From assembly GCA_964344415.1 (NCBI GenBank), contig CAYFMS010000002.1, forward strand, positions 128,196-192,195: a DNA stretch of 64,000 nt. Direction: 5' to 3'. Positions within the stretch are counted from its first letter, which is position 1, and each line of letters opens with the position of its first letter. Source of the stretch: an uncultured Gammaproteobacteria bacterium (lineage in GTDB: Bacteria; Patescibacteriota; Patescibacteriia; UBA9934). Positions 4,741 to 36,390 of the stretch are shown piece by piece. The notes beneath the pieces were generated by a model. That model had not been told where the DNA came from. It searched no databases and saw nothing but the letters and a program-made list of their open reading frames with translations. The position numbers and the translations under genes were made by a program.

Positions 4741-4896
4741 AGCTACATTTGTGATCTATCATTTCAGATCTCCATTGCTCGACACCGTACGTTTATGTAC
4801 GGCTTACTCTGCTATTCGATCTTCAATGATATCTCATCAAATGTATCATGATCATCGGAATCGGGTCCTCACATCTGCACCGATATCTTAAGAAGA

Positions 4897-4935
4897 ATGG
4901 CCACATCGAGTGGCTATTTTTTAGATCAGATACAT
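4897..4935 (+). repeat. second copy of the rpmG terminator hairpin
   Basis: ggccacatcgagtggctattttttagatcag repeats 4711-4745. Confidence 0.6.
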
Positions 4936-4949
4936 TCCGAGATCCGATC

Positions 4950-5085
4950 TCAAATCGGATCTCAATTTAGCGATATTCTAAAATTATAATCGCTCCAATC
5001 GCTAATATTAGTGAATTTATAATTCAATATTCCGCGGAGATCGGATCTCGGATGTGGATAAGTAAATCGGATCTCGGGAAGGGAA
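4950..5085 (+). repeat. short repeats of atcggatctc(gg) and a GATGTGGATAAGT box upstream of rnhB
   Basis: Four copies of cggatctc and a gagatcggatctc palindrome. The perfect DnaA-box complement tgtggataa lies at 5062-5070. Confidence 0.55.
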
Positions 5086-5103
5086 ACATGCTAAGCTGGA
5101 ACT

Positions 5104-5703
5104 ATGACTGTTTCAACACCGACGCGAGCATTTGAAGCAAAAGTATTAGAGGAGGGTTATCGCTTTGTCGTTGGGGTTGATGAAGCGGGCGCAGGTGCGC
5201 TCGCCGGCCCCGTAGTGGCAGGTGCCGTCATCTTACATCCAACAGAGTCTGTCACGGGATTGCAAGATTCAAAAAAGCTCAGTGCAAAAAAGCGCGAGGA
5301 ATTATATTCGGCTATTTTAAAATATTCAGTGGCATGGGCTTTTGGTATGGCAACAGTCGAGGAAATTATGTTGCATGGAATCCGCCCAGCAAATTATCTC
5401 GCCATGCGCCGCGCTATAGAAAAAATTGAACAGGCAGAATATGCCCTCGTCGATGCATGGACAATTCCGTCACTTCACATACCTCAACTTGGAATCATAA
5501 GAGGCGACCAACAGGTCGAATCGATTGCAGCCGCTTCAATTATTGCAAAAGTAACACGCGATCGCATGATGATGGATTATCATGCACGCTACCCGATATA
5601 TGGTTTCGATAGCCATAAAGGGTATGGCACTCGCAAGCACCGTGAAGCTATTGAAAAGCATGGGCCATCACCGGTGCATCGAATGAATTTCACATTATAT
5701 TAA
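5104..5703 (+). CDS. rnhB: ribonuclease HII
   Basis: Motifs GVDEAGAGALAGPVV and DSKKLS. Confidence 0.85.
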   Translation: MTVSTPTRAFEAKVLEEGYRFVVGVDEAGAGALAGPVVAGAVILHPTESVTGLQDSKKLSAKKREELYSAILKYSVAWAFGMATVEEIMLHGIRPANYLAMRRAIEKIEQAEYALVDAWTIPSLHIPQLGIIRGDQQVESIAAASIIAKVTRDRMMMDYHARYPIYGFDSHKGYGTRKHREAIEKHGPSPVHRMNFTLY

Positions 5704-5704
5704 T

Positions 5705-5953
5705 ATGGGGCATCTTTCCGCAGAGCAGCTTGAGCAGAAATTGACAGATGCAAGAGGGGTGGTGACTGTCGGAAAAAAGTATCGACATTATAAAACTCGC
5801 GGAATATATATTATCGAGGATATTGTTTTATCTGAAAAAGATGAGGATATTTTGGTCGTGTACGCGAATACAGAAAATGGATTGAAATGGGCGAGGCCGC
5901 TTTCCAGCTTCACCGAGAAAGTCGACGGCCAATCCCGATTCGAAATGGTATAA
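5705..5953 (+). CDS. DUF1653-like small protein
   Basis: 82 aa with the motif YANTENGLKWARP. Confidence 0.4.
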   Translation: MGHLSAEQLEQKLTDARGVVTVGKKYRHYKTRGIYIIEDIVLSEKDEDILVVYANTENGLKWARPLSSFTEKVDGQSRFEMV

Positions 5954-5962
5954 TCCTGCTGT

Positions 5963-6685
5963 ATGAATATGAAATCTTGCTATTTCGCGACAGCTGATGA
6001 AATGGCGGAGCTCGACCGACTTGCCGTTGAGTCTGGTTTAGAAATTCGGCAAATGATGGAGCTTGCGGGATGGCATATGCTGGCGGTATTGCGGCGGCTG
6101 CGAATTAAAAAGAACAAGAGAATTGTCATTGTTGCAGGGGAGGGGAATAAGGGTGGTGATGGGCTGTCTGCAGCTCGTCATCTTTTAAATTCGGGTTATT
6201 CTGTTCAGATTATTCTCGTCGGCGATCGTCGGAAAATGAAAAAAGATGCGAGGCATCATTTAAAAATGGCTGATCGCATGAATATCCCTATTTGGTATTG
6301 GAAGGCGGAATCATCGCGCTGCGTGGAAATTCTCGGCATGTCCGATGTGATCATTGATGCGATGATTGGGTATCGATTGAAAGGATCACCGCGGGCGCCG
6401 TTTCGAGATGTGATTGAGGGAATCCAACTGCAAAAATCAAAGGTTATTTCATATGATTTACCGACCGGCATTGACCCGACAACGGGAATTCCAACGGCGG
6501 CATTTGTGCATGCGGATGCAACATTGACATTGGCACTTCCCAAAAAACTATTTCAAGCAAAAGAGGCTCGCAAGCATTCTGGAAGGATTTTTATAGCCGA
6601 TATCGGCATTCCGTCGATTGTTTATGATCAAATCCATGCGAGGAGCCGGCCACATTTCCGCAGCGGCGGAATGATTGAGCTTTGA
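5963..6685 (+). CDS. nnrE: NAD(P)H-hydrate epimerase (YjeF N-terminal domain)
   Basis: GEGNKGGDG motif, and DLPTGID within the Rossmann-like YjeF_N fold. Confidence 0.7.
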   Translation: MNMKSCYFATADEMAELDRLAVESGLEIRQMMELAGWHMLAVLRRLRIKKNKRIVIVAGEGNKGGDGLSAARHLLNSGYSVQIILVGDRRKMKKDARHHLKMADRMNIPIWYWKAESSRCVEILGMSDVIIDAMIGYRLKGSPRAPFRDVIEGIQLQKSKVISYDLPTGIDPTTGIPTAAFVHADATLTLALPKKLFQAKEARKHSGRIFIADIGIPSIVYDQIHARSRPHFRSGGMIEL

Positions 6686-6928
6686 TTACTTTCGCACCAA
6701 GAAAAATAAATACACGATAAGGGCAGTTACAAAAGCAAGAATGTGAACTTGGGGAATTTCGAGTATTCCTGGGATGAAATGCTCAAGATCGAGGATATTA
6801 AAATAATTGAGATGCATGATTTCTTTTGTTCTGATCGCATGAATTGCGAGAAGTATCATGTGAGCGCCCGCAGATAGCAGCATTGTTTTGAAGAGTGCAT
6901 CGATATACTTATTTTTGTGCATTTTCAT
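6686..6928 (-). CDS. small hydrophobic hypothetical protein
   Basis: 80-aa ORF supported by compositional signal only. Confidence 0.25.
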   Translation of the reverse strand: MKMHKNKYIDALFKTMLLSAGAHMILLAIHAIRTKEIMHLNYFNILDLEHFIPGILEIPQVHILAFVTALIVYLFFLVRK

Positions 6929-7164
6929 ACAGCCGTATTATAGCAAGTTCACTTGACTGGAGTGTGATTCACGGTTATCCTTTTGCTACATTTCGAATTA
7001 GCAAGCTGTCGTCGATTGCAATTTGATGTACTTACACTACGTCAGAATAGTAAAGTCTGTTGAGTACAAGGCGCGGGTGGTGGTCGAGGAGCCGTATTTA
7101 AACATACGGTGACGAAGACCGACGGGTCCCGCAACGCCGTAATCAGCAGACTTGGACTATTCTA

Positions 7165-7240
7165 GCCGCCGTAGCTCAGTTGGTAGAGCGCATCCATGGT
7201 AAGGATGAGGTCACCAGTTCAATCCTGGTCGGTGGCTCCA
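7165..7240 (+). tRNA. tRNA-Thr (GGT)
   Basis: Sequence GCCGCCGTAGCTCAGTTGGTAGAGC...atGGTaa...GGTTCAATCC...GGCTCCA with a hand-folded cloverleaf. Confidence 0.8.
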
Positions 7241-7244
7241 ACAA

Positions 7245-7268
7245 AGCCCGTCTTCTGACGGGTTTTGT
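7245..7268 (+). terminator. terminator after tRNA-Thr
   Basis: Stem cccgtc-ttct-gacggg followed by a T-run. Confidence 0.55.
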
Positions 7269-7408
7269 TGTCTCCTGAATATGATAAAGGGTTTCCGGCA
7301 ACGCCGGACCAGGCTCCGCCTGGCAAGCCCCGACGGTGGCTCCATCACGAATATGTGAATAGATCAGGGGTTCCCCCTGTTTTTTAATAGATCAGCTTTC
7401 AACTTTGT

Positions 7409-7440
7409 AAAAATAAAAAACCGAGGCGGCGATGCCTCGG
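7409..7440 (-). terminator. minus-strand rho-independent terminator
   Basis: Stem ccgaggc-ggcgat-gcctcgg with an A-run on the plus strand, which is a T-run on the minus strand. Confidence 0.55.
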
Positions 7441-7473
7441 ATCATGGGTGAAGATGCTGTAAGGCGGCGGGAG

Positions 7474-7650
7474 TTACCGGCCATGATCTTCAACGATTGC
7501 CGTGCCTGCGCAGCTACATTCCTGCACATAGCTCGTGAACAGAAAGAGGGCCAGGGTGAAGATCACGACGAGCGCTCGACCCTTACCGCCACTGCCTTTA
7601 TGATCTTGTTGATCATCCCAGTTCGCAAGATTATTGTCTGAACTCAACAC
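7474..7650 (-). CDS. possible small membrane protein (GTG or TTG start)
   Basis: Reads ...DNNLANWDDQQDHKGSGGKGRALVVIFTLALFLFTSYV... A GGAGG sits just upstream. The region is GC-rich and open on both strands, so the call is uncertain. Confidence 0.2.
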   Translation of the reverse strand: MLSSDNNLANWDDQQDHKGSGGKGRALVVIFTLALFLFTSYVQECSCAGTAIVEDHGR

Positions 7651-7687
7651 ACCTCCATTATTCGTAGCCTGAGATTACCACTTCTAC

Positions 7688-8062
7688 TTACTTTTTTCTA
7701 TACTTGGCTGTCTTTTTTGCAATTTTTCCCGGCTGTTTTACCCATTGTTTTCCAGATTTAGTACCTTTATTTTTTGCTCGACTTGTTGCCGCCTTTTCTC
7801 CTGGTTTCAATGCTTCACGAGCTTTTTTGGGCAAGTATCGACTCTCGCCATCTTTCCCAACATATCCCCAATCCTCATCAGTCCATTTTGCTAAATCATT
7901 ATCTTCAGATTTTGATCCAATGTATTCACCCCCGCGGTCTTTATATAACTTAACTGCATATTGCATGGCTCGAGCTGAAAATTTACCATCCATTTTCTTG
8001 ATGGCGTCTTTTTTACACTTTTCCCATAATTCTGGATCCTTGCGTTCCGCTGTTTTTGACAT
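7688..8062 (-). CDS. lysine-rich hypothetical protein
   Basis: 124 aa, MSKTAERKDPELWEKCKKDAIKK...KWTDEDWGYVG. The family is not recognised. Confidence 0.5.
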   Translation of the reverse strand: MSKTAERKDPELWEKCKKDAIKKMDGKFSARAMQYAVKLYKDRGGEYIGSKSEDNDLAKWTDEDWGYVGKDGESRYLPKKAREALKPGEKAATSRAKNKGTKSGKQWVKQPGKIAKKTAKYRKK

Positions 8063-8122
8063 ATTAAATATTATACCGCAGATATTGCTTGTTCTTGTGC
8101 GAATTGCTAATCTTGAATCAAT

Positions 8123-9127
8123 ATGAAGTTACTTGTGACTGGCGGGGCTGGATTTATAGGATCAAATTTTATCCATTACTGGCTAAAAAATCATCCCGAT
8201 GATGAAATTGTGAATCTCGATGCTCTGACCTATGCTGGGAATTTGGAAAATTTGCAGGGAGTTGAAAGTGATGAACGCTATCAGTTTGTGAAAGGGGATA
8301 TTACAGATCGAGATCTTGTTTTTAGCCTTGTGAAAGATTGTGACATTGTGGTGCATTATGCGGCGGAAAGTCATGTTGATCGGTCAATTTTAGATCCGGC
8401 AGCATTCATCAAAACAAATGTACTCGGGACGCAAGTGCTTTTGGATGCAGCGCGCGAATATGGGAAGCGATTCCATCATGTTTCGACGGATGAGGTTTAT
8501 GGAACATTAGCTCCAGAGGATTCTGCTTTTACGGAAGAATCTCCTTATAAACCGCGGAGCCCCTATGCGGCATCAAAAGCAGCGAGCGATCATTTAGTGC
8601 GCGCTTACCACGTGACATATGATTTGCCTGTTACATTATCGAATTGCTCGAATAATTACGGCCCATTTCATTTTCCAGAAAAATTAATCCCACTCTTTAT
8701 TACGAATCTTATGGAGGGGAAGAAGGTGCCAGTTTACGGAGATGGGGGGCAGATTCGTGACTGGATTCATACAGAAGATCATGCCCGAGGTGTTGAAGCG
8801 ATTATTAAAAAGGGGAAAGTCGGTGAAACATATTTGCTTGGGGGTAATAATCAGCCAACGAACCTTGAAATCACAAAAAAACTTCTTGATTTACTTGGAC
8901 GAGATGAATCCTTTATAGAATATGTGAAAGATAGGCCTGGGCATGACCGACGCTATGACATCGACTTTACAAAGGCGAAAAATGAATTAGGATGGGAACC
9001 GAAAATTGATTTGAATGCAGGACTTACAATGACGGTTGACTGGTATAAGAAAAATGAAGATTGGTGGAAGAATTGTAAGTCAGGTTCTTACCAAGAATAT
9101 TACGAAAAACAGTATAAAGATCGATAG
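8123..9127 (+). CDS. rfbB: dTDP-glucose 4,6-dehydratase
   Basis: TGGAGFIGS motif with a YxxxK catalytic context. The sequence is typical of RfbB. Confidence 0.85.
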   Translation: MKLLVTGGAGFIGSNFIHYWLKNHPDDEIVNLDALTYAGNLENLQGVESDERYQFVKGDITDRDLVFSLVKDCDIVVHYAAESHVDRSILDPAAFIKTNVLGTQVLLDAAREYGKRFHHVSTDEVYGTLAPEDSAFTEESPYKPRSPYAASKAASDHLVRAYHVTYDLPVTLSNCSNNYGPFHFPEKLIPLFITNLMEGKKVPVYGDGGQIRDWIHTEDHARGVEAIIKKGKVGETYLLGGNNQPTNLEITKKLLDLLGRDESFIEYVKDRPGHDRRYDIDFTKAKNELGWEPKIDLNAGLTMTVDWYKKNEDWWKNCKSGSYQEYYEKQYKDR

Positions 9128-9128
9128 T

Positions 9129-10217
9129 ATGAAAGCAGTTATTACGGCGGGCGGGCGCGGAACGCGATTAAGGCCCGTAACCTGGACAATGAATAAACAT
9201 GTGATACCCATTGCGAATGAGCCAATGATTTTTAATGCATTTCGGAAAATTGCGGAAACGGGCATTAAAGATGTGGCCGTCATCATCAATGAGGGTGATA
9301 TTGATTTGCCTCGTATTTGTGGTGATGGGTCAAGATGGGGTATTTCTCTAACGTATATTGAACAGGTCGGTGGGCCGCTTGGGCTCGCAAACACATTGTG
9401 GCAGGCAAAGGATTTTGTTGGAAATGATGATGTCCTTCTATACCTTGGAGACAATATCGTTCTTGGTTCGCTTTCTGATCTTGTGAACAAGTTTCAGAAT
9501 GAACATCTTGATTGCTGCTTGGCTCTAACTCGCGTTGATGACCCTGAGCGTTTTGGTGTTGCTGAAATTGATGCAGATGGCAGGATTACGGCCGTTATTG
9601 AAAAGCCGGAAAATCCACCGAATAATTTAGCAGTGACGGGACTCTATATTTATAAAGGGCCGAGCTATTTTGAGGCATATGAACATATTCAACCTTCAGA
9701 TCGAGGTGAGTATGAAATTTCAGATATTCATGACTGGTTTGTGAAAAATGGCCGTACTGTTGGATATGAAGAGATGTTTGGTTGGTGGAAAGATACAGGA
9801 AAGCCAGATGATTTGCTTGAAGGGAATCAGTTGCTATTGAATGAAATGGGGCTCGAGGATGCGACGATCGACGAGGCGGCAACGGTGCATAAGGATGCGC
9901 GTATTCAAGGACGCGTGAAAATTGCTGCGGGAGCGGAGATTGAGCAAGATGTATTGATTCGAGGCCCGGTTATCATTGGTGCTAATGCCAAGCTCGAGAA
10001 TTGTTATATTGGCCCGCATACCACGATTGGAAATAACACGGTTATTTCAGATTGCGAAATCGAGCATTCTATTGTTATGGATGGTGCGAAGATATCCACC
10101 AATGAACGCATTACAGACAGCATTATCGGTCACAATGCAACGATTGTGAAGCAGGCGGCATCTCGTCCCGGAGGCCATAAAATGGTCATCGGCGAGAATA
10201 CATATCTTGAATTATAA
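9129..10217 (+). CDS. sugar-phosphate nucleotidyltransferase with a C-terminal hexapeptide-repeat domain (RmlA-like, long form)
   Basis: N-terminal AGGRGTRLRPVT motif and a C-terminal left-handed beta-helix repeat region. The ATG lies 1 nt after the rfbB stop codon. Confidence 0.7.
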   Translation: MKAVITAGGRGTRLRPVTWTMNKHVIPIANEPMIFNAFRKIAETGIKDVAVIINEGDIDLPRICGDGSRWGISLTYIEQVGGPLGLANTLWQAKDFVGNDDVLLYLGDNIVLGSLSDLVNKFQNEHLDCCLALTRVDDPERFGVAEIDADGRITAVIEKPENPPNNLAVTGLYIYKGPSYFEAYEHIQPSDRGEYEISDIHDWFVKNGRTVGYEEMFGWWKDTGKPDDLLEGNQLLLNEMGLEDATIDEAATVHKDARIQGRVKIAAGAEIEQDVLIRGPVIIGANAKLENCYIGPHTTIGNNTVISDCEIEHSIVMDGAKISTNERITDSIIGHNATIVKQAASRPGGHKMVIGENTYLEL

Positions 10218-10337
10218 GATTTATTCACGTTGCTTCTTGCATGCTCATTTGAGTTGTGAATGCAATTTATTCACAATTCCTTAGAAAAATAGTGAAATTG
10301 TGCTAAGATCGCTCTGTAATCAATAATTAATCAAATT

Positions 10338-10622
10338 ATGGAAAAGCGTTTAACAAAATCTCAACTTATGTCAGCACTAGCTGAAACTTGGGGAATTTCA
10401 AAGAAAGAAGCGGAAGAAGGGTACAATGCCTTCGTGGAGATGCTTTATAAGGAAATTAATCGAGCAGGAGAGGTAATGCTTCCAGGACTTGGTAAATTTG
10501 CAAAGAAGCACCGAAAGGCGCGAATGGGGCGTAACCCAATGACGGGTGAGTCAATTCAAATCCCTGCAAAGACGGTTTTGAAGTTCGGAGTAAACAAGGC
10601 GGCAAAAGATGCATTGCTCTAA
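10338..10622 (+). CDS. hup: HU/IHF-family DNA-binding protein
   Basis: Motif GKF...ARMGRNPMTGESIQIPA. Confidence 0.8.
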   Translation: MEKRLTKSQLMSALAETWGISKKEAEEGYNAFVEMLYKEINRAGEVMLPGLGKFAKKHRKARMGRNPMTGESIQIPAKTVLKFGVNKAAKDALL

Positions 10623-10751
10623 GGTGTAATTTGTATCTGGCTCGTACGGAGTCGGGTTTTATACAGAAATCTCCCTCATGGATTTCCTTGGGGGATTTTT
10701 GTTTAAATGCTGTAAATTTGAATGCAGCTAAGTCTGTGGTAAAGTCAAAAT

Positions 10752-11948: not shown

Positions 11949-11953
11949 GACAT

Positions 11954-12784: not shown

Positions 12785-12810
12785 AAAAACAGGCCTTTGC
12801 AGGTCTGTTT
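12785..12810. terminator. bidirectional terminator between convergent genes
   Basis: Hairpin caggcc-tttgc-aggtctg with an A-run on one side and a T-run on the other. Confidence 0.55.
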
Positions 12811-13173: not shown

Positions 13174-14529
13174 ATGAAGGGGGATTCCGGAGGCAAAAAG
13201 GCGCATATTGTTGCGGTGAATATGGGATATGGTCATGAGAGGCCGGCACATGTCATGCGGCAGCTTTTTGGCTATAAAAATCAGGTGATAATAGCCAATG
13301 ATTATGAGGGTATTCCCGAACGAGATCAGCGATTATGGGAGGATGGCCGCAAGGTCTATGAAAAGGTATCTCGTTTCAAAAAAGTGCCTGTTTTTGGACA
13401 AATGGTATTTGGGATCATGAATGAGATTCAGCGAATACCTCCTTTTTATCCACAAAGAGATTTATCATCCCCAAGCCTACAGGTTCGTCAATTTTATTGG
13501 TTGATTCGCCAGAAAAACATGATGCGGCACTTAATTGAGAAGTTAGGGGAGCATCCTTTGCCATTTGTCAGCACATTTATGTCGCCAGCATTTGCTGCTG
13601 AAGAATTTGGTTACCCGGAAGATATTTTTGTGCTTTGCACGGATTCCGATATAAGCAGAGCATGGGTCCCGCTCGATCCAAAAAAGACGCGCATTCAGTA
13701 CTTTGCACCGACTGGCCGCGTTGCTGCTCGTTTGAATATGTATGGCGTGCCTGAAAAGAATATTCATCTAACCGGATTCCCACTTCCTCCAAAAAATATT
13801 GGCGGGACGGAATCAAAGTTGGTCCTTTCAGATTTAAACCGGCGTATTTGTAATTTGGATCCGAATGGATATTTTATTGCACATACGGGTGTGGCATTGA
13901 ATGCCTATCTTGGCGCGCAGTATTGTCGAAATGTTCAGAAAAAGAAAGCGACAAAGATTCAATTGGCTTTTGCTGTTGGTGGAGCTGGTGCTCAAAGAGA
14001 AATCGGCGGTGCGATTATGAAATCTCTCAAGAGAGAGCTGGCGCAAAATAAAATAGTTTTGCATTTAATTGCGGGGACGAGGCTAGAGGTTGCGCGATAT
14101 TTTGAAGATGCTGCTCGGCAGTTAAGGCTTTCGAAGTTTTTAGGAAAATCGATCAAAATTCTTATCGAGCCGAGCCGCCCTCAATACTTTGATGCATTTT
14201 CTGCGCTCATGAGGAAAATCGATATTTTATGGACAAAGCCAAGTGAATTGTCTTTTTATGCTGGGCTTGGAATTCCGATTATTATGGCACCGACCGTTGG
14301 GTCTCAGGAAGATTTTAATAAGCAATGGTTGACGCAAATGGGGGCGGGGATTGATCAAATGGATCCGCGCTATACAAATGAATGGCTTTTTGATTGGATT
14401 GAATCTGGTGCACTTGCGCGGATGGCTTGGAATGGATACATCGAGGCGCCGACGCATGGTGTTTACCGAATCCATGAGACGATTAGTGGGCGTAAGCATG
14501 ATATTCACCCATTACCACTCATAGTCTAG
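13174..14529 (+). CDS. putative GT-B fold glycosyltransferase (MurG/MGDG-synthase-like)
   Basis: N-terminal NMGYGHERPAH and C-terminal PIIMAPTVGSQEDFNKQWL...GAG, which resembles GT28 C-terminal motifs. Confidence 0.4.
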   Translation: MKGDSGGKKAHIVAVNMGYGHERPAHVMRQLFGYKNQVIIANDYEGIPERDQRLWEDGRKVYEKVSRFKKVPVFGQMVFGIMNEIQRIPPFYPQRDLSSPSLQVRQFYWLIRQKNMMRHLIEKLGEHPLPFVSTFMSPAFAAEEFGYPEDIFVLCTDSDISRAWVPLDPKKTRIQYFAPTGRVAARLNMYGVPEKNIHLTGFPLPPKNIGGTESKLVLSDLNRRICNLDPNGYFIAHTGVALNAYLGAQYCRNVQKKKATKIQLAFAVGGAGAQREIGGAIMKSLKRELAQNKIVLHLIAGTRLEVARYFEDAARQLRLSKFLGKSIKILIEPSRPQYFDAFSALMRKIDILWTKPSELSFYAGLGIPIIMAPTVGSQEDFNKQWLTQMGAGIDQMDPRYTNEWLFDWIESGALARMAWNGYIEAPTHGVYRIHETISGRKHDIHPLPLIV

Positions 14530-14850
14530 GTGTCGCTCGTGAGTTAGCGATCTTTCGCTTCAGTTTTCCGTTGCTCATTCACCGTACGTTTCAGTACGGC
14601 TCATTCCGCTACTCAAACTTCAACGAAATATCATCTAACTCACTTCGCGACCACAATCGTAATCCCAAACTTGATATGGGATCCATACGATGCGCCTCTC
14701 GACTACTTACTATTTTCTACTAACTACTTACTGCTAAATCACTGCGCGACCCTATTCGAAATCCTGAGCCTGTCGAAGGATCTTTCCAAATTGCGACCAG
14801 AATCTCCTCAATCTCCTAAATCTCCTTTATCTCCGTTTCACGCATATAAT
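14530..14850 (+). repeat. mosaic intergenic repeat element, copy B (modules M1-M2-M3-M4)
   Basis: Starts immediately after a stop codon. Shares gtcgctcgtgagttagcgatc, the hairpin ccgtacgtttcagtacgg, cacttcgcgacc, and gatcgaaatcctgagcctgtcgaaggatct with the other loci. Confidence 0.7.
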
Positions 14851-14918
14851 CCTCTTGCCAGACAAGATTTTTTAATTTAATGTAAATATATCTTGGTGGA
14901 CATTCATGTAAACGATTG

Positions 14919-15107
14919 TCACGGAAACTGTAAGACTTCATGGATTGAGTGCCTGTTTGCAATTTCTAGAGTTGCTTGAACGGGATGGGTAATAGAAAGC
15001 CCTTCATTCTCCAGGTCGATCAGCCGCGTCTCCTCAAAAACGCCTTCTTGCAGTGCCTGTGCTGATTCCAACCTCTTCGCAAAGGGATGGCATTGAATGC
15101 TCACCAT
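14919..15107 (-). CDS. questionable small ORF embedded between repeat copies
   Basis: 62 aa with no SD. It may be a gene fragment. Confidence 0.15.
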   Translation of the reverse strand: MVSIQCHPFAKRLESAQALQEGVFEETRLIDLENEGLSITHPVQATLEIANRHSIHEVLQFP

Positions 15108-15109: not shown

Positions 15110-15180
15110 TTTTTATTTTGTCGCTTGTGAGTGAGCGATCTTGATCGAAATCCTGAGCCTGTCGAATTGACGATTGCTCT
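15110..15180 (+). repeat. mosaic intergenic repeat element, copy D (M1 fused to M3)
   Basis: The segment ttgtcgcttgtgagtgagcgatcttgatcgaaatcctgagcctgtcgaa. Confidence 0.7.
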
Positions 15181-17776: not shown

Positions 17777-18349
17777 ATGGGTTATCAAAGATTTGGTTCG
17801 GGAAATGGGCCTGCCGGCAAAGCAAAGGGTACAATTATTGCTTTGATTGGATTACTTGCAGCCGTGGCATTTTTTCTTATTATTCTCATCACATTCTTCA
17901 TTGATATGGCGGCGGAAGATATAGATGATGTTGAAATGGTGGAAGTGGTGGAAGAATCGACGAGTCAAATCGAGGAACAAATTCCATCGGTCAACATTGC
18001 GGTTGAGGAGATTGAATTGCATGGTTCCGAAGGATTTACAGCAAGTGGAATTGCACGTCGCGGCGTGGAAAATGGCATTTTTACACATGTCGTTGTTGCG
18101 GATTTACCGGCCATTAATACGGATGCCTATTTTTATGAGGGATGGCTTGTGCGTCCAGGAGTAACCGAATTCTTTTCAACGGGTGCTATGTTCCCGCGTG
18201 AAGATGGGAAGTGGGGATTGGTTTATGACATTGAACTTGATGATAGGGACGATGTATACGATTTTTATCGAGTGATTTTAACGCGCGAGCCATTTGATAA
18301 TGATCCGGCGCCGGATGTTCATGTCGCAGAAGGAGACTTCGTGAACTAG
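17777..18349 (+). CDS. membrane protein with an anti-sigma-K (RskA)-like C-terminal domain
   Basis: TM helix, an acidic linker, and a C-terminal YEGWLV...ILTREPFDNDPAP pattern. Confidence 0.35.
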   Translation: MGYQRFGSGNGPAGKAKGTIIALIGLLAAVAFFLIILITFFIDMAAEDIDDVEMVEVVEESTSQIEEQIPSVNIAVEEIELHGSEGFTASGIARRGVENGIFTHVVVADLPAINTDAYFYEGWLVRPGVTEFFSTGAMFPREDGKWGLVYDIELDDRDDVYDFYRVILTREPFDNDPAPDVHVAEGDFVN

Positions 18350-18560
18350 CTGTCGCTTGTGAATGAGCGCTCTTTCGGCTCAGATCTGCGCTACTCGACG
18401 TCGCACCTTTCAGTGCGCCTTACTGCGTGTGCTCGATCTTCACCGAAATAGCATCTCATTCACTTCGCGACCCGGATCGAAATCCTGAGCCTGTCGAAGG
18501 ATCTTTCTGTATCTACAAGCTACCAGCTAAAACCTACCAGCTACTTACTGCGCAACTCGC
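18350..18560 (+). repeat. mosaic intergenic repeat element, copy C (M1-M2-M3-M5)
   Basis: gctgtcgcttgtgaatgagcgctc, hairpin cgcac-ctttca-gtgcg with compensatory substitutions, cacttcgcgacc, and gatcgaaatcctgagcctgtcgaaggatct. Confidence 0.7.
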
Positions 18561-18587
18561 TACAGATCATGATATAATGAATGCATT

Positions 18588-27245: not shown

Positions 27246-27246
27246 T

Positions 27247-29371: not shown

Positions 29372-29388
29372 CCGAGCATTGACCAAAC

Positions 29389-29445
29389 TTATCCACAGTC
29401 AATGCCCGACTTAGATGTGGATAAGTCGGGAAGGGGATTTGAGGT
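29389..29445 (+). promoter_or_regulatory. nested palindrome containing inverted DnaA-box sequences (cttatccaca / tgtggataag)
   Basis: Sequence acTTATCCACAgtcaatgCCCGACTTAgatgTGGATAAGTCGGGaaggg. It lies between murF and the GC-rich island. Confidence 0.5.
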
Positions 29446-29493
29446 TTTGATGTAGGGTAAAATGGCATCTACGCTACGTGTAAGGAGGATACG

Positions 29494-30291: not shown

Positions 30292-30326
30292 CACCTTTCT
30301 TCAAGAGGGGTGTTTTTATTTTGCCC

Positions 30327-30356
30327 TTGCATCGCATAGAATGAGTGGTCTATAAT
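30327..30356 (+). promoter_or_regulatory. sigma70-like promoter TTGCAT-N18-TATAAT
   Basis: Consensus -10 hexamer about 50 nt upstream of the riboflavin kinase ATG. Confidence 0.45.
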
Positions 30357-30409
30357 GACCAATTAGTCATTGCAAAATAGATGAAACCATGTAAGATATT
30401 CGAAATTCT

Positions 30410-30775
30410 ATGTTACTTGCACAATACAAAGGAATTGTTGTCAAAGGAGAGGGTATTGCGGGTATTGAGTATTCAACACCCACAGCGAATCTCGACTTAG
30501 GCAAAATCGCACTTGAGCATGGTATTTATGCTGCGAGGACAGTTTATGACGGAGATACATACAATAGCGCTGTTTGCTATGGTGCTGATGGGAAGTATAA
30601 ATTTGAAGTTCATTTGCTGAATTTTGACAAAGATATTTACGGTGAGGAATTAGAAGTGACTGTTATTGAGAAGATCAGTGAAGTCATCCCATGGGTTTCG
30701 AAAGAGCGGATGCGTCAAAAAATTCTAGATGATTTGCATCAAATTAGAGAGTATTTCAAAAAAAGAGCCGTGTAG
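30410..30775 (+). CDS. riboflavin kinase (stand-alone RFK domain)
   Basis: Motifs GEGIAGIEYSTPTANL and E.H...F..DIYGEELEV. Confidence 0.65.
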   Translation: MLLAQYKGIVVKGEGIAGIEYSTPTANLDLGKIALEHGIYAARTVYDGDTYNSAVCYGADGKYKFEVHLLNFDKDIYGEELEVTVIEKISEVIPWVSKERMRQKILDDLHQIREYFKKRAV

Positions 30776-30783
30776 GCTCTTTT

Positions 30784-32079
30784 TTATTTCCCGGTCACGA
30801 TTTCTACCATTTTTTCAATTCGTCGCTTGTCAGCAAGTAATTTTGATCGACTCTTATTAAAGAGAATCACATTGAATACGGATTTACCACCATGTTTTGA
30901 GAATCGGACCATGTCGCCAATCTTTTTGTTGATATCAATACTCACAAAAGAATCAATTTCCCGAATTTTCTTTACCCCCTTCATTTTCTTAATTCGACCC
31001 TCTTTTTTCGGATAGTATTTCAGAACGGCCGAATAGCCTTTTCTCCGTCTTGGGATCTGTAGCTTCTCAGGGATGCGAATCAAGACATCATTGAGTGAAT
31101 GATTAATGCCAAATGACATTTCATAAAATTTATGTCTGAATCCACCAATACGGGCACCAATTTCAATAATTTTCCAGCCTGTTTCCGTTCGCATTAATTC
31201 AGTATGTGCTGTTGTACTTCGAAGGCCAAGCGCATGAATGCCTTTTTCGGCCGTTTCTTTGAGAGCCTTCAATGTTGATGCGCTCAGTGTTGTCGGAGTA
31301 ATTTGGAAATAATTGAAGAAATCATCAATCCCAATGTCCTGACCTGTTTTTACGGCAACAACGGGGCAATGGAAGACTTTTCCTCGTGATGAGACATATG
31401 AATCGATTGAATACATATCTCCCTCCATGAATTCTTCTACCAATACTTTGGCTTCATCATCTAATTTTCGTTCACGATAATGTTTCTTGATTTTTCTAAA
31501 TGTCTTTCGAAGTGTCGATTCGAGCTCATCGCGATGATAGCAAATGGTTACGAGTAGACTCTGAGCTAGTCCAGCGGGTTTTACAACACATGGATAATTA
31601 ATCTTCCGCTCAATTTTCTTAATCGATTCAATTCCGCTATCTGAAACAAGCGTGTACTTCGGAGTAATAGATTTATCATAAGCAGAAAAGCGGCGGCGCA
31701 TTTGCGTCTTGTCGATTGCCCAGGCGACAGAATCTGCCGTTGGCGTTCGAAGATAGGGGACATTTGGAATAATTTTTTTGAATGAACCCATATGCGCCTC
31801 ACTTCTACATGTGACGGCAAGCAATCGATTCTCATATGGCTTCAATGCCTTTCGAATATCTGAATGAGAATTGAGTTTTGCTTTTATGACAAGGTCAAAT
31901 CGGTCATTTAGCTTATCGGTAAACTTCTTTTTTCTCTTACTGTCGACAATAACAGCGAAGACGATATCTCTTTTTTGAGCAGCAAAAACATCGCGCAATT
32001 CCTCAATTGCATAATCTGGTGCTGTTTGGACATAGAGAATCATGTCTCGTCCTTGTTTCCAGTTTTTACTCCTCGCCAT
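30784..32079 (-). CDS. ATP-grasp domain protein (carboxylate-amine ligase-like)
   Basis: YPCVVKPAG, EEFMEGDMYSID, and IEIGARIGG motifs. There is a 150-aa N-terminal extension. Confidence 0.6.
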   Translation of the reverse strand: MARSKNWKQGRDMILYVQTAPDYAIEELRDVFAAQKRDIVFAVIVDSKRKKKFTDKLNDRFDLVIKAKLNSHSDIRKALKPYENRLLAVTCRSEAHMGSFKKIIPNVPYLRTPTADSVAWAIDKTQMRRRFSAYDKSITPKYTLVSDSGIESIKKIERKINYPCVVKPAGLAQSLLVTICYHRDELESTLRKTFRKIKKHYRERKLDDEAKVLVEEFMEGDMYSIDSYVSSRGKVFHCPVVAVKTGQDIGIDDFFNYFQITPTTLSASTLKALKETAEKGIHALGLRSTTAHTELMRTETGWKIIEIGARIGGFRHKFYEMSFGINHSLNDVLIRIPEKLQIPRRRKGYSAVLKYYPKKEGRIKKMKGVKKIREIDSFVSIDINKKIGDMVRFSKHGGKSVFNVILFNKSRSKLLADKRRIEKMVEIVTGK

Positions 32080-32098
32080 ATGCGCAAATAGTATTTGG

Positions 32099-33133
32099 TT
32101 AATGCGTCGCGGTCAATAGCCGCTCTTCGTCATTAGAATAAGAATGCAAAATCTGATCAAGAAGATTGAAAACCTCATTTTTGGTCGTCGCTGTCATGAG
32201 TGGCTGTTTGAATGATTTGAAATGAGGGATTCCTTTAAAATACCATGAAAGGTGTTTGCGGAATGTTCGGACTCCTTTTTCGCCATATTGCTCCGTATGT
32301 AAATCCAAGTGCCGCTTCACAACGCGAATTCTTTCTTCCATTGTGACTTCAATCGGTTCTTCACCGGCGAGACGCTGTTCAATCTGTTTGAATATCCATG
32401 GATTACCAAGTGCGCCGCGCGCAATGAGCACACCGTCGCATTTCGTGTATTCAATTGCTTCAAAGAAATCTTCATGCGTAAAGATGTCGCCATTATACAG
32501 TACGGGAACAGAAACGGCTTCTTTGACAGCTTTAACAACATTACGATTCGAAAGGCCAGCATAGCCCTGTTCCTTTGTGCGTCCATGGACGGTGATGAGG
32601 TCAGCTCCGGCCGCTTCCATTTTTTTTGCAAAAGAAATGCATTCATCATGCTTCGACCAGCCAGCTCGCATTTTGACAGAAATTGGCGCATTGACGGCCG
32701 CTTTCATTTTTTTAACGATTTCCGTTGCGAGCTCTGCATCTTTCATCAATGCTGATCCATTGAAATTCGATGTAATTTTATAAACGGGGCATCCCATATT
32801 GATATCAATCCCTTCAGGGTGATGTCCTTCTTCGACAATAGCAGCAGATGCAGCCATTGTTTCTGGATTGGCTCCAAAAATTTGCTGGACAAGAGGTCGC
32901 TCTTCCGGATGAATGTCTGTCATTTCCATCGTTTTATCATTCCCGCGTACAACAGCCTCAGAAGAAACCATTTCACGAAAAACAATCGGAGAAGCGATTT
33001 CCTTCACGACACGACAAAAAGCCGAATCAGTCATATCGGCCATTGGAGATAGGGCCACGATGGGCCGTTTTGTCGTCTTCCAATCAATATACATAGAAGC
33101 GGTGATTCTGACAGAAAATAAGCGAATTGTCAA
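32099..33133 (-). CDS. dus: tRNA-dihydrouridine synthase
   Basis: ALSPMADMTD, DINMGCP, and VKMRAGW motifs. The start is possibly internal (MYIDW...). Confidence 0.8.
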   Translation of the reverse strand: MTIRLFSVRITASMYIDWKTTKRPIVALSPMADMTDSAFCRVVKEIASPIVFREMVSSEAVVRGNDKTMEMTDIHPEERPLVQQIFGANPETMAASAAIVEEGHHPEGIDINMGCPVYKITSNFNGSALMKDAELATEIVKKMKAAVNAPISVKMRAGWSKHDECISFAKKMEAAGADLITVHGRTKEQGYAGLSNRNVVKAVKEAVSVPVLYNGDIFTHEDFFEAIEYTKCDGVLIARGALGNPWIFKQIEQRLAGEEPIEVTMEERIRVVKRHLDLHTEQYGEKGVRTFRKHLSWYFKGIPHFKSFKQPLMTATTKNEVFNLLDQILHSYSNDEERLLTATH

Positions 33134-33163
33134 TATAAGTATAAGGGTTTAGAATACTCGTAT

Positions 33164-33544
33164 ATGAAATTATCTTCGACAACATCAATGCTACTTCTTG
33201 CTGGCGGAATTATCGCCCTTCTTATCGGTGCTGCTATTTGGCGCAGTGCTGGTCCATCTAAATATGACGGTTTTGCGCAGTGTCTTGCGGAAAAGGATGC
33301 CTTTGTATATGAGGCATGGTGGTGCAGTGCATGTACGCAGCAAAAAGACTTATTCGGTAGTGCTTGGCGACATGTTCCAAAGAAAGAATGTGCTCCAGCG
33401 GGGCAGAGTGGAAGTTTGTCGCTTTGTGCAGATGATAATATCACGGCGACGCCAACATGGCAGTACCCTGATGCATCAACGCGATCGGGCGTTCATCCAC
33501 TTTCAGAATTAGCAACAATTTATGGCTGCGAACTTCCTGAATAA
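33164..33544 (+). CDS. thioredoxin-like protein (VKOR partner, CxxC)
   Basis: TM anchor and the motif WWCSACTQQK, with two further Cys residues. Confidence 0.5.
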   Translation: MKLSSTTSMLLLAGGIIALLIGAAIWRSAGPSKYDGFAQCLAEKDAFVYEAWWCSACTQQKDLFGSAWRHVPKKECAPAGQSGSLSLCADDNITATPTWQYPDASTRSGVHPLSELATIYGCELPE

Positions 33545-33989
33545 GATAAAGCGCGAAACGTTGATTGCGATTATTATTGCAGCAGCACTTGTTGGTGTTG
33601 TTGCGGCAAGTTATACGGCTTTGGCAAAGCTTGGGGCAGCATCTCATGAAGTATGTTCGGTGAGCGAGAGTTTTAACTGTGAAATTGTTAATACAAGTCA
33701 ATGGTCCGAAATCGCCGGAATTCCCGTTTCAGTTTTGGGATTGATCTCGTATGTTCTGTTCATTATCGGATCACTCATTGTTCTGAAAAAACCACAGGAG
33801 AATATCGAAACGCTTTTAGGCGCTTTGGCAATCGTAGGTTTGCTGTTCAGTCTTTATCTGACATCCATTGAGGCATTTGTTTTGCATGCTTGGTGCATGT
33901 TCTGTATTGCTTCACAAATTGCCATTCTTATTATCGCCGCGGCTGTTATGATGCTGCGGTATAAAGATTTCGGAGGAAAAAATGCTTAA
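33522..33989 (+). CDS. vitamin K epoxide reductase (VKOR) family membrane protein
   Basis: Loop Cys pair CSVSESFNC and the active site WCMFC in TM4. Confidence 0.6.
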   Translation: MAANFLNKIKRETLIAIIIAAALVGVVAASYTALAKLGAASHEVCSVSESFNCEIVNTSQWSEIAGIPVSVLGLISYVLFIIGSLIVLKKPQENIETLLGALAIVGLLFSLYLTSIEAFVLHAWCMFCIASQIAILIIAAAVMMLRYKDFGGKNA

Positions 33990-35343
33990 ATTATCATTTC
34001 ATGGCGCGGTTCGGGGGGTGACGGGATCTGCTCATCTTGTTGAAACCGAAATGGGAAAATTGCTTGTTGATTGCGGGATGCATCAAGGGGAGCGGCTTTG
34101 TAGTAAAACAAATCATGAAGAATTTGATTTCGACCCAGCAGAAATCGATGCCGTTCTGGTAACGCATGCACATTTTGATCACACTGGGCGTTTACCTCTT
34201 CTCATCAAGCGAGGATTTAAGGGGTCCATATACACGACACCACCAACAAAGGCATTGATGCATTATATTTTGGAAGACGCGCTTCGGATTATGCAATACA
34301 ATGCTCAGAAATGCGGGGATGATATTTTATATTCCGGCGATGATTTGCAGGAAATGATGTCACGCGTAAAGGGGATTGGTTATCACACGGAATTTGAAGC
34401 GGCGCCGAAAATGCATGTCATGTTTCATGATGCTGGTCATATTTTAGGTTCAGCATTTATATCGGTGAAGACTCCTGAAAAGAAAATCGTATTCAGTGGT
34501 GATCTTGGAAATGATGATGTACCGATTCTCCCAGACACGGAGTATATTGAGCAGGCAGATTTTATCGTCTGTGAATCAACATATGGAGATAAGGATCATA
34601 ATCCGTCCAGTGAGAGAAAAGAGCAATTATTGCAGGATGTCATGAAAATTACTGGTCGTGGCGGCACAGTCATCATTCCCGCTTTTTCCATCGAGCGGAC
34701 ACAGGAGCTTCTTTATTTGCTTGATGAATTGGTCGATGAGGGGTCCTTGCCGGATATTCCCGTATTTTTAGACAGTCCACTTGCGATTCATGCGACGGAG
34801 GTGTATGAAAAATACAAAAATTATCTTCGTTTTGATCGGTCAACGAATGAGAGTAAGGATGGAGACTTTTTCTCTTTTCGAAATTTGCATATTACATTGA
34901 GAGTTGAGGATTCGAAAAATATTAATCAGCATAAGGGTCCAAAAGTTATCATTGCCGGAAGTGGAATGATGACGGGAGGACGTGTTCTGCATCATTTGAA
35001 ACGTTATCTACCAGATCCAGATAGCGGAGTCATTATTATCGGTTACCAAGCTCAGCATACGCTTGGTCGGAAGATTCAGGACGGGGCGCATCAAGTTGTG
35101 ATTCATCGAGAAACGGTGCCTGTGCATGCCGAGATTTTTGAAATTGAGTCATTTTCTGCACATGCGGGTAGATCGAAATTGGCAAAATGGGTGCAGCCAA
35201 GATCGGGCCCAGCTGAAAAAATATTTTTAGTGCATGGCGATTTAGAGGTGCGTCCGCAGCTTAAAGATTTTATGAAAAAAAATGGAGTTGAGAGCACGAT
35301 TATTTTGCCAGGATTTCAGCAAGAATTTGAATTGGATTTTTAA
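33982..35343 (+). CDS. MBL-fold beta-CASP ribonuclease
   Basis: THAHFDHTG motif and C-terminal beta-CASP motifs. Confidence 0.7.
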   Translation: MLKLSFHGAVRGVTGSAHLVETEMGKLLVDCGMHQGERLCSKTNHEEFDFDPAEIDAVLVTHAHFDHTGRLPLLIKRGFKGSIYTTPPTKALMHYILEDALRIMQYNAQKCGDDILYSGDDLQEMMSRVKGIGYHTEFEAAPKMHVMFHDAGHILGSAFISVKTPEKKIVFSGDLGNDDVPILPDTEYIEQADFIVCESTYGDKDHNPSSERKEQLLQDVMKITGRGGTVIIPAFSIERTQELLYLLDELVDEGSLPDIPVFLDSPLAIHATEVYEKYKNYLRFDRSTNESKDGDFFSFRNLHITLRVEDSKNINQHKGPKVIIAGSGMMTGGRVLHHLKRYLPDPDSGVIIIGYQAQHTLGRKIQDGAHQVVIHRETVPVHAEIFEIESFSAHAGRSKLAKWVQPRSGPAEKIFLVHGDLEVRPQLKDFMKKNGVESTIILPGFQQEFELDF

Positions 35344-35372
35344 TAAAAAAAGCGGGTTCGAAAACTCGCTTA

Positions 35373-35645
35373 TTACGCTATTCTCCTTTTGGTTTCCTCT
35401 GGGGGGAGTCCGCTTACTGGTTTTACTTGGATTGAGTAGGTCGTGATTTGGCCACTGAAGGCACATTTGTGTTCGTGACCGTGCACATGCCGAAGTATGA
35501 GTTCGGCATCCTCAGGAGTTGTTTGATATTCCTGATGTCCACTGGTTTGGGTGAGCTTTGTATAAACATGACAATTCTCACATGTCCCTTTCGCCCCAAA
35601 GAGTTGAACTGTGTCTGCCTTTTTCGATCTATAGAGTTCAAGCAT
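35373..35645 (-). CDS. small Cys/His-rich hypothetical protein
   Basis: SD ggaggg upstream. Starts MLELYRSKK and contains GTCENCH...HVHGHEHKC. The longer ORF 35373..35945 is probably a GC artefact. Confidence 0.4.
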   Translation of the reverse strand: MLELYRSKKADTVQLFGAKGTCENCHVYTKLTQTSGHQEYQTTPEDAELILRHVHGHEHKCAFSGQITTYSIQVKPVSGLPPEETKRRIA

Positions 35646-35977
35646 GTTTCCCTCCATATATGAAGCTAGCATAGATAGGGGGTTGTGCCAAATATCTTCT
35701 ATCACGTCATCTCGAGCCCTGCCTCTACCTGACGGTAGACAGGTGCAGGCAGGCACGGCTGGGATTTCGCTGCCCGAATCTGCCGCCACCTGTGAGACTG
35801 TCACACTGCATGCGGCAAGAGCGAGGAATTGCAAAACAGCCGAATGAAATGAACAATGAATTGTCCTTTCGGAAAATAAAGACATTTCCGTTCTCTGTTT
35901 TGCCCAGCTCAGCTGGGTTTGCCCGAGCGATGACGCTCTATGCATGTGACAAAGCGAGCACTGGCGGCGTTCTTTTG

Positions 35978-36003
35978 CTTACTTTTCTTTAAAGAAAAGT
36001 AAG
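35978..36003. repeat. perfect 26-bp palindrome cttacttttctttaaagaaaagtaag
   Basis: 13 plus 13 perfect inverted repeat in a GC-rich non-coding region. Confidence 0.8.
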
Positions 36004-36099
36004 AAGAAAAACAAGGGATGCCGGATCGAGTCCGGCATGACGGTTGCTGATGGATTCCGGCTCGGAGGCCAGAATGACGATCACGGATTGAAGCCGTAA

Positions 36100-36390
36100 C
36101 TCGTGACCTTGATCGAAATCCTGAGCCTGTCGAAGGATCTATTCCCGCCTTTGCTCTTCCCCCCTTCGCTCGGCTAGCCGAGCTTCGGAGGGACATGTAG
36201 AGCTACAGCGGACATGTATGCCCGGAATGACGCGAAGCTCCTAAAATCTCCTTTCAATCTCATTTATCTCCTCCACATAAATCCGTATATTCGTACTATC
36301 CGTAAATCTGTAACGGTGACCCCACAAGCTACGAGCTAAAACCTACAACCTAAAATTCGTGCTATCCGTAAATCAGTAACGACACCCTAA
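36100..36390 (+). repeat. mosaic intergenic repeat element, copy E (M3-M4-M5 plus internal tandem)
   Basis: gatcgaaatcctgagcctgtcgaaggatct, ctcctaaaatctcctttcaatctc, and two cgtactatccgtaaatctgtaacg-like units. Confidence 0.7.

Follow-up and report, generated by a model that had tools for sequence, protein, structure and literature searches.

A family of composite hairpin repeats abutting stop codons in a compact Patescibacteria genome, possibly of mobile origin

Genomes of Patescibacteria are extremely compact, and eight intergenic spacers swollen to 130-700 nt by one repeat family are therefore conspicuous in such a genome; the question is what these repeats are and how they came to lie where they do. 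The DNA considered here, called the window, is a stretch of 64,000 nucleotides (contig CAYFMS010000002.1 of assembly GCA_964344415.1, positions 128,196 to 192,195) from a Patescibacteria relative of Candidatus Uhrbacteria. The original prediction, made from the letters of the window alone, described a dispersed, mosaic, intergenic family of repeats, and this description holds, with eight loci (F, G, A, H, B, D, C and E) inside 41.6 kb of one contig and thus more than it had listed, F, G and H being the additions. Six of the loci carry a long imperfect hairpin that covaries along its arms, in most cases begins at a stop codon and is followed by a second, smaller hairpin with a conserved loop. 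The evidence leans towards a lineage-specific, non-autonomous composite repeat that inserts at stop codons and resembles miniature inverted-repeat transposable elements (MITEs) or the mosaics (bacterial interspersed mosaic elements, BIMEs) built from repetitive extragenic palindromic (REP) sequences.

The visible DNA comprises the window with 6.7 kb to its left and 8.7 kb to its right, 79.4 kb in all and about 10% of the 768,188-bp contig that was examined (ENA ERZ930061, run ERR2281801), on which the window occupies 122,408-186,407. Among the 86 genes based on open reading frames (ORFs) in these 79.4 kb the median spacer is 20 nt, compared with 238-707 nt for the spacers that bear an element, in which gene callers placed no ORF. 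GC skew is positive throughout the + strand of the window, without a switch, and most genes lie on that strand, which is for these two reasons taken as probably the leading one. The closest UvrD homologue found anywhere is only 66% identical to that of the host, so that no close relative of the host has been sampled. An independent Logan assembly of that run matches regions A and H letter for letter and ends 41 nt into copy B; de Bruijn assemblers break at repeats.

A full unit measures about 240 nt and consists of the hairpin of about 125 nt, the smaller hairpin M3, and a C-rich, G-poor tail. Four of the six long hairpins (A, B, C and H) lie in the window, and F and G were found 3.6-5.1 kb to its left by comparing the contig with itself; the same comparison gave no copy in the 8.7 kb of the right extension, and there is none in the 36 kb beyond the last locus. 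The copies and their parts are as follows, coordinates marked L010 being those of the left-hand sequence record.

L010:1549-1789: copy F, full unit, between the genes for the large and small subunits of ribonucleotide reductase (RNR); self-comparison.
L010:2825-3068: copy G, full unit, after the RNR small subunit gene; self-comparison.
4706..4749 and 4893..4936, + strand: 44-nt direct repeat bracketing copy A (93% identity, self-BLAST).
4738..4857, + strand: copy A, long hairpin, tip at 4783-4804 and TAG (4738-4740) at the 5' foot.
4860..4884, + strand: copy A, hairpin at the M3 position with another loop (ATCGG-15 nt-CCGAT), from the sequence and alignments.
7036..7164, - strand: copy H, diverged long hairpin with the tip CACCGTAT-GTTTAA-ATACGGCT.
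14527..14654, + strand: copy B, long hairpin, beginning at the TAG stop of a DUF6938 gene.
14656..14691, + strand: copy B, hairpin at the M3 position with another loop (ATCGTA-ATCCC-11 nt-GGGAT-cca-TACGAT), from alignment and sequence.
14692..14751, + strand: copy B, second unit, a 5'-truncated remnant of the 3' arm ending CACTGCGCGACC, with 7-nt tandem repeats at 14702-14737.
14753..14783, + strand: copy B, M3 hairpin with loop GAGCCTGTCGA and stem TCCT/AGGA, from the motif search.
14784..14860, + strand: copy B, C-rich, G-poor tail with 3.8 copies of the 9-nt AATCTCCTA (14801-14834; M4).
15119..15166, + strand: copy D, internal-deletion derivative, the first 23 nt of the 5' arm (15119-15141) fused to M3 (15143-15166).
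18347..18474, + strand: copy C, long hairpin, beginning at the TAG stop of a 190-aa gene, tip at 18399-18420.
18475..18503, + strand: copy C, M3 hairpin, from the motif search.
18504..18587, + strand: copy C, tail with 7-nt tandem repeats at 18513-18544 (M5).
36085..36139, + strand: copy E, 5'-truncated derivative, a short remnant of the 3' arm (…CTCGTGACC) and then M3 (36111-36139).
36140..36386, + strand: copy E, tail with M4-like units, TAAATCCG repeats and 7-nt repeats at 36324-36352 (M5).

The shared motifs labelled M1 to M5 in the original prediction are present where it had placed them and exceed chance by far, matches being found at the family loci and none in shuffled sequence: M1 at 14531, 15119 and 18351, M5 at 18517 and 36326, the M2 region at 4783, 14580 and 18399, and CACTTCGCGACC at 14641, 14740 (one mismatch) and 18461. 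The copies that it named are all on the + strand; the internal duplication it saw in B is real, and D is indeed M1 joined to M3. Its M1, M2 and cacttcgcgacc are, by contrast, no separate modules. When copies F, G, B, C and A are folded together with RNAalifold, M1 pairs with cacttcgcgacc and M2 lies at the tip, so that the three become, in turn, the 5' arm, the tip and the 3' arm of one imperfect hairpin with 37 pairs in about 125 nt; in copy B, for instance, they occupy 14531-14553, 14580-14601 and 14641-14652. Standard pairs fill 96.4% of the sequence-by-pair cells of these five copies, against 33-39% after the 3' partners are slid by 1-3 columns, and both sides have changed at 16 pairs, against a shuffled mean of 5.5 and a value reached by none of 500 shuffles. 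With all six copies aligned to the model, 97.2% of cells are paired and double changes occur at 26 of the 37 pairs (41 cells), numbers that lean towards structure because this alignment was fitted to it.

Covariation had been claimed earlier from the short stem of M2. The constraint on a nucleic-acid structure that was read from it stands, and its proposed basis does not: taken alone, the M2 stem offers one compensated pair in C (T-A to C-G) and one in H, and its outer pair is broken in C and G. The evidence proper comes from the hairpin of 37-40 bp in which M1 and cacttcgcgacc are joined and 16-26 pairs covary. The tip, a 6-bp stem with a 6-nt loop and a flanking internal loop, is conserved in sequence instead. 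Copy H, which was found with the hairpin covariance model (R1; 22 bits, E 0.005-0.02), has the same length as the others, folds at -51.1 kcal/mol (z -3.75) and matches the consensus at 19 of the 22 positions of the tip, and its arms have no BLAST-detectable similarity to those of any other copy. H thus keeps the length and the tip and has unrelated arms, which shows what is conserved: sequence in the tip, and in the arms base pairing alone. Among the five related copies, which differ by 8-26%, the internal loops are conserved in position; B and G are the same at 92% of 139 nt, and A (115 bits with R1; RNA fold of -32.3 kcal/mol, 36 pairs) has lower arms that have diverged from the other copies yet are still compensated.

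A further long hairpin of about 140 nt lies just upstream of copy F (L010:1355-1505, contig 117,086-117,236; -60.3 kcal/mol, z -2.9), inside the coding sequence of the RNR large subunit, in a Pro/Ala-rich, low-complexity linker near the C-terminus. It shows no similarity to the tip of the family and could be an old in-frame palindromic insertion.

In B, C, F and G the element begins at the stop codon of the gene upstream, a TAG whose T is also the first letter that is homologous between copies; all four genes abutted by a hairpin end in TAG, a stop used by 20 of the 86 genes overall (23%; p ~0.003). In A and H a TAG likewise stands at the 5' foot without being a stop codon there, so that the trinucleotide is found at the foot of all six hairpins; in H it lies on the element's own strand (7162-7164) and abuts the first base of tRNA-Thr(GGT). 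The original prediction had M1 always directly after a stop codon, a rule to which the D copy (15119), lying between two divergent genes, is an exception. The proteins encoded upstream end at the same residue as in relatives (…AEGDFVN compared with …AEGEFEE, and …HPLPLIV compared with …HPHPLVV), and therefore the elements sit at the ancestral stop. In one relative (L019), whose gene order of UvrD, a gene of about 190 aa, LOG and a 524-aa gene is that of the window, the spacer at the junction of copy C is 4 nt long (TAGagttATG) as against 238 nt in the window; in other relatives the corresponding junctions are 33-132 nt wide and give no match to the hairpin model. Removing the element and one TA from F and G leaves TAA, 8 nt and ATG in the first case and TAG, 12 nt and ATG in the second, and the two loci read TA-G…element…CCCTAA-TA-A/G, the hyphens marking the junctions, which is consistent with a duplication of TA at the stop codon. 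Five of the six hairpins lie immediately 3' of a co-oriented gene, with copy F inside the pair of RNR genes, and five of six hairpins as well as seven of seven M3 copies are on the G-rich + strand.

The second hairpin, M3, is the most uniform part of the unit. Its 22-nt core TCGAAATCCTGAGCCTGTCGAA is exact at 14756, 15145, 18477 and 36113 and was absent from shuffled sequence, and in the window it reads (A)UCCU-GAGCCUGUCGA-AGGA(U). Six of the seven M3 copies are identical over 27-31 nt and the adjoining hairpins differ by 8-26%, from which it follows that M3 is under much stronger constraint than the hairpin arms. A and the first unit of B hold a hairpin with another loop at the same position, and in copy D the 3' half of the stem has been lost (…TCGAATTGACG). 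The motif TCGAAATCC within M3 loosely resembles a tRNA T-loop.

M3, listed in the original prediction as a module of the family, is not private to it either. A scan of reference genomes returned exact matches to the 22-mer in Sphingobium, Kiloniellales and Rhizobium, and a metagenome scan with a 27-mer returned matches on only two low-GC contigs of an unrelated organism. In these three taxa, and on plasmids of Nitratireductor and Comamonas, the 11-nt GAGCYTGTCGA is the loop of a hairpin closed by T·A whose stem differs and covaries from taxon to taxon (CCT/AGG, GCT/AGC, GGT/ACC, TTC/GAA); a variant with one mismatch in the loop lies on a Hymenobacter plasmid, and the loop is also present on a low-GC metagenome contig. 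The taxa thus include Alpha- and Betaproteobacteria and Bacteroidota besides viral contigs, and the loci of these bacteria are all in unannotated DNA. More than 120 contigs from viruses or proviruses, with a GC content of 36-73%, carry the 17-mer CCTGAGCCTGTCGAAGG between flanks that nearly all differ, and there the next two positions of the stem covary. Counts at the first free position of the stem are 151 for Watson-Crick pairs, 30 for U·G and 2 for A·C; because U·G so exceeds A·C, the M3 hairpin is strand-specific, its functional strand being the one that reads GAGCYUGUCGA, which is + in the window. The window M3 thus belongs to a class of conserved-loop hairpins, U-GAGCYUGUCGA-A on a covarying stem of at least 4-5 bp.

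M3-type hairpins often occur close together, and among the instances sampled there are 24 inverted and 13 direct pairs no more than 200 nt apart. Elsewhere the 22-mer arises from a tandem duplication in which ATCCTGAGCCTNTCGAA occurs twice, in Alphaproteobacteria and on the low-GC metagenome contig, at these places:

L003:7939-7973, L004:141-175, L005:5688-5722 and L012:2515-2558: tandem-duplicated M3-type unit.

The GATCGAA that precedes M3 in the window may be the relic of a first unit of this kind. The motif had no match in 5,426 complete Escherichia coli genomes and only a chance match, in a coding region, in cultured-phage records; searches of full-text literature with the loop as DNA and RNA 10-12-mers, and with the common peptides that it encodes in spurious ORFs, gave chance primer matches only, and Rfam at E<=1 over four proteobacterial M3-type loci nothing relevant. 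Tentatively, M3 may be a strand-specific single-stranded signal, common to Patescibacteria, Proteobacteria and Bacteroidota, whose loop is read by a factor that is either widely conserved or spread horizontally; the Patescibacteria element would then be a new composite built around M3, with the 125-nt hairpin as a second recognition module.

How the family came about is best approached from its junctions. Of the three possibilities named in the original prediction (a small RNA (sRNA), a protein-binding hairpin or a MITE-like element), the insertion-like junctions and the truncated derivatives favour a MITE/REP-like element. Insertion or duplication would have brought the units in, with the TA of a stop codon as the probable target; there an element starting with G would regenerate TAG and leave TA followed by A or G at its far end. 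Later decay by internal deletion would have given D, and 5' truncation E and the second unit of B. The property under selection would be the formation of a hairpin in a single strand, as the substrate of a hairpin-recognising mobilisation enzyme encoded elsewhere and acting in trans; alternatively, the co-transcribed hairpin might matter at the 3' end of the upstream cistron, as a barrier or a processing site partly melted by terminating ribosomes. In a genome without gaps, stop codons may have been the only neutral targets, colonised first and diverged since. This account is the one considered probable, if only by a modest degree.

Several observations weigh against it. No transposase, RAYT or reverse transcriptase had been seen in the window, and none of these and no integrase is found in the whole 79.4 kb, which holds housekeeping genes only and is a mere tenth or so of the contig; among its proteins there is no match to Y1_Tnp. 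The nearest relative, at 66% identity in UvrD, offers no near-identical empty site for comparison. A TA duplication fits F and G and does not fit E (…CCCTAA-TCA), and the far ends of B and C cannot be located. The composite unit, from TAG… to …ACCCTAA, has no convincing terminal inverted repeats, the 125-nt hairpin being itself an inverted repeat. As the copies differ by 8-26% and the arms of H cannot be aligned, any spread was not recent, and long-term compensatory evolution fits a function for the host equally well. All loci fall within 41.6 kb and none in the next 36 kb, so that local duplication instead of transposition is possible. Finally, the signals for the strand disagree, the long hairpin pointing to the complement and the wobble pairs of M3, with the gene context, to the + strand.

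Several known systems are close to the family. ERIC (or IRU) and Correia (NEMIS) elements are non-coding intergenic MITEs of about 100-170 bp whose transcripts form one long stem-loop, and MITEs have TA termini and target-site duplications; ERIC and Correia elements occur in many copies, are often transcribed together with the gene whose end they adjoin, and reportedly affect mRNA stability, Correia elements by way of RNase III and ERIC by way of RNase E with ribosomes exposing the site (PMC2229807). Here too a hairpin of about 125 nt lies at gene ends with a TA(G) junction, one copy (F) being inside an operon, and the unit is short (<~300 bp), non-coding, multi-copy and intergenic as MITEs are. 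There is however no similarity in sequence, and MITEs conserve their termini, the terminal inverted repeats to which transposase binds, whereas in the present family the tip is conserved and the arms drift with compensation. The composite unit shows no convincing terminal inverted repeats and starts exactly at stop codons, and its host belongs to the Patescibacteria and has a genome in which spacers measure 20 nt in the median.

BIMEs combine a palindromic unit and further short motifs in mosaic fashion, and REPs carry a GTAG head. The mosaic impression already given by the family in the earlier reading matches the first of these features, the short conserved TAG beside the hairpin foot recalls the second, and the close inverted and direct doublets and clusters formed by M3-type hairpins in the intergenic DNA of Proteobacteria are also REP/BIME-like. 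REPINs form long hairpins in single-stranded DNA (ssDNA) or mRNA, and compensatory changes are common in them (PMC3116915). In comparison, REPs are conserved at the foot with a variable spacer at the tip, which is the reverse of the arrangement found here; RAYT, a Y1 transposase whose gene is single-copy and usually has its own REPs on either side, is not encoded in the visible tenth of the genome; and REP families are usually lineage-specific and defined by stem and head, as opposed to M3, whose conserved part is a loop and extends across phyla.

IS200/IS605 elements, which transpose as single strands, and their non-autonomous derivatives recognise hairpins, insert beside short specific sequences without inverted terminal repeats and show a strong bias of orientation relative to replication. 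The placement of five of six hairpins and all seven M3 copies on the G-rich + strand and the constant TAG at the 5' foot are reminiscent of them. They differ in having a short hairpin near each end instead of one of 125 nt and a target of 4-5 nt as against 3 nt here; neither TnpA nor TnpB was seen in the 79.4 kb, and, by the wobble criterion, the better-folding strand of the long hairpin differs from the one that should lie open on the lagging-strand template. The behaviour of the family is closest to that of ERIC/Correia-type hairpin MITEs and REPIN/BIME mosaics; it is a sequence member of none of these and inverts their logic, with a conserved tip and free arms where they have conserved ends and a free middle.

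The foremost alternative to a MITE/REP-like element is that the repeats are cis-acting RNA of the 3' untranslated or intercistronic region, selected by the host to control 3'-end stability, processing by RNase III or RNase E, or Rho-type termination, an account that would be compatible with a mobile origin and is judged possible and rather unlikely. Hairpin, M3 and tail would be transcribed with the upstream gene and the foot opened by each ribosome terminating at the TAG. The position of five of the six hairpins directly 3' of a co-oriented gene suggests such co-transcription at the 3' end of a cistron, and that of F, within the RNR gene pair, inside an operon. Pairing has been maintained over a long time, M3 is invariant amid 8-26% divergence with wobbles that point to the + strand, the C-rich, G-poor tail would resemble a Rho loading region, and ERIC and Correia elements provide precedents (PMC2229807). 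On the other side, H and E have no co-oriented gene upstream, the element is missing from relatives that carry the same genes, the genes that would be served (those for the RNR subunits, L33, the DUF6938 protein and the 190-aa protein) have no common theme, and no U-tract terminator follows either hairpin. The main-clade consensus, moreover, pairs on the + strand without any G·U, and the complement folds much better.

It is this last point from which a second, improbable alternative draws its strength, namely that the complementary strand carries sRNA genes comprising GGAG-rich repeats, the reverse M3 hairpin and the long hairpin, which would act in trans, for example by titrating a factor that binds GGA or Shine-Dalgarno sequences, or as antisense to the 3' ends upstream. 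The complementary strand is more stable by 8-18 kcal/mol in six of six hairpins and shows conserved G·U pairs with one-sided changes from G·U to G-C; its consensus has 94.7% of cells paired and 22 covarying pairs, values that none of 500 shuffles reach. The wobble asymmetry of the long hairpin supports this reading best of all. The loops are purine-rich on that strand, the M4 units read (A/G)GGAGAU at a spacing of 9 nt, and B, D, E and H, read in this sense, run in the same direction as a neighbouring gene or tRNA. The asymmetry, however, comes down to about three C·A oppositions inherited within one clade, the main one; an A·C at the foot of the tip hairpin is common to all six copies, and for the rest copy H is balanced (3 C·A, 4 G·U). 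The long-hairpin wobbles are therefore suggestive and not decisive in favouring the complementary strand or a constraint at the DNA level. The cross-phylum wobbles of M3 point to the other strand, F and G would need antisense transcription inside an operon, and no conserved promoter or terminator was found on the complementary strand.

Integron attC-type sites, or other folded ssDNA recombination sites marking the 3' ends of gene cassettes, are also long imperfect palindromes right after stops, in one orientation and with structure conserved above sequence, but this very improbable reading was rejected on core polarity and gene context: attC cores run RYYYAAC…GTTRRRY, the reverse of the family, which has GTTAG in its 5' arm and CTAAC in its 3' arm, no integrase is encoded in the 79 kb, and the flanks are housekeeping genes in a conserved order also seen in relatives without elements. 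Intrinsic terminators were rejected too, as no T-run follows the long hairpin or M3, and a terminator scan gave only small sub-hairpins inside M1 at background frequency. A search of the elements for a conserved promoter found none. Readthrough or recoding of the stop codon is contradicted by downstream frames that are closed or inconsistent between copies, and a protein-coding element by indels between copies, early stops in two frames and the lack of any called ORF; stops close two of the three frames in the first 15 nt of the element. Rfam 15 at gathering score identified only 4 tRNAs in the window, and at E<=10 nothing relevant over the element regions.

The tails and the composition of the units set them apart from their surroundings. 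The 9-nt AATCTCCTA and the 7-nt CCCTAAA-, AGCTACC- and ACCTACA-like tandem repeats of the tails are what had been called M4 and M5, and a 3' end …ACCCTAA(T) is common to F, G and E. The tail of C has a TATAAT-like box at its end, just before the LOG-family gene, and that of E ends …ACACCCTAA directly against the stop codon of a minus-strand gene (36387-36938). GC skew is -0.2 to -0.35 in the elements compared with about +0.1 in the surrounding + strand, and the base composition of the element is thus foreign to its neighbourhood. GATC occurs 11.9 times per kb in elements against 4.5, an enrichment that is real but confounded by shared ancestry. G-quadruplex potential, on the complementary strand of the tail, is found in copy F only and is not a feature of the family.

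Other repeats and structures accompany individual copies. The 44-nt direct repeat around copy A is made up of the rpmG terminator hairpin and some 12 nt from the start of hairpin A; ordinary target-site duplications are shorter, and a tandem duplication followed by deletion is a possible origin. The string TTTTTTA(AT)AGATCAG(C/A)T follows three terminator-like hairpins (4730-4745, 4917-4932, 7382-7397) and, since it overlaps hairpin A at the 5' foot, could be a solo remnant of the 5' end of that subfamily. The 190 nt that follow tRNA-Thr(GGT) at 7240-7430 fold at -66.9 kcal/mol (140-nt frame) with two terminator-like hairpins, and together with copy H they make up a spacer of 759 nt, the second largest in the region. 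Between copies B and D a 62-aa ORF without a Pfam match (14919-15107, minus strand) is the sole minus-strand gene of its stretch; relatives hold different small ORFs in that interval, and it may have arrived or been rearranged together with the repeats. To the left of copy E and just upstream of a minus-strand gene (35373-35945) lies a 44-nt palindrome at 35969-36012, 86% self-complementary, whose loop (GCCGGATCGAGTCCGGC) is similar to the one in the rpmG terminator hairpin (GCCACATCGAGTGGC).

In the spacer upstream of the RNase HII gene, four copies of ATCGGATCTC (4942-4965, 5037-5050, 5066-5080), two of which form a perfect 10-bp hairpin (GAGATCCGAT-ctcaa-ATCGGATCTC), stand beside a DnaA-box-like TGTGGATAA (5054-5062). 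Repeats of the CTTGATGTGGATAAGT type at 29400-29426 and 46177-46250 contain the DnaA-box complement TGTGGATAA, and the latter site, which lies between murJ and alaS, has two of them arranged as a 29-nt inverted repeat of 90% complementarity; as the window has no GC-skew switch, this site is probably not oriC.

In the literature searched, no description of dispersed hairpin repeats in Patescibacteria was found, a full-text search for intergenic hairpin repeats in this group giving only papers on the unrelated tandem arrays of TIGR-Tas. The family shows conservation of structure alone with unusual clarity, and its rule of placement, starting at TAG, is uncommon and lends itself to testable ideas on how a genome with almost no free space is colonised. 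In practical terms, repeats of this family break assemblies and can seed spurious ORFs. The loop of M3 links the host to an apparently unnamed cross-phylum motif, and the identity of whatever reads it would be of general interest; if M3 is such a signal, its pairing with the 125-nt hairpin would offer a handle on an unknown RNA- or ssDNA-binding system that is present even in minimal genomes.

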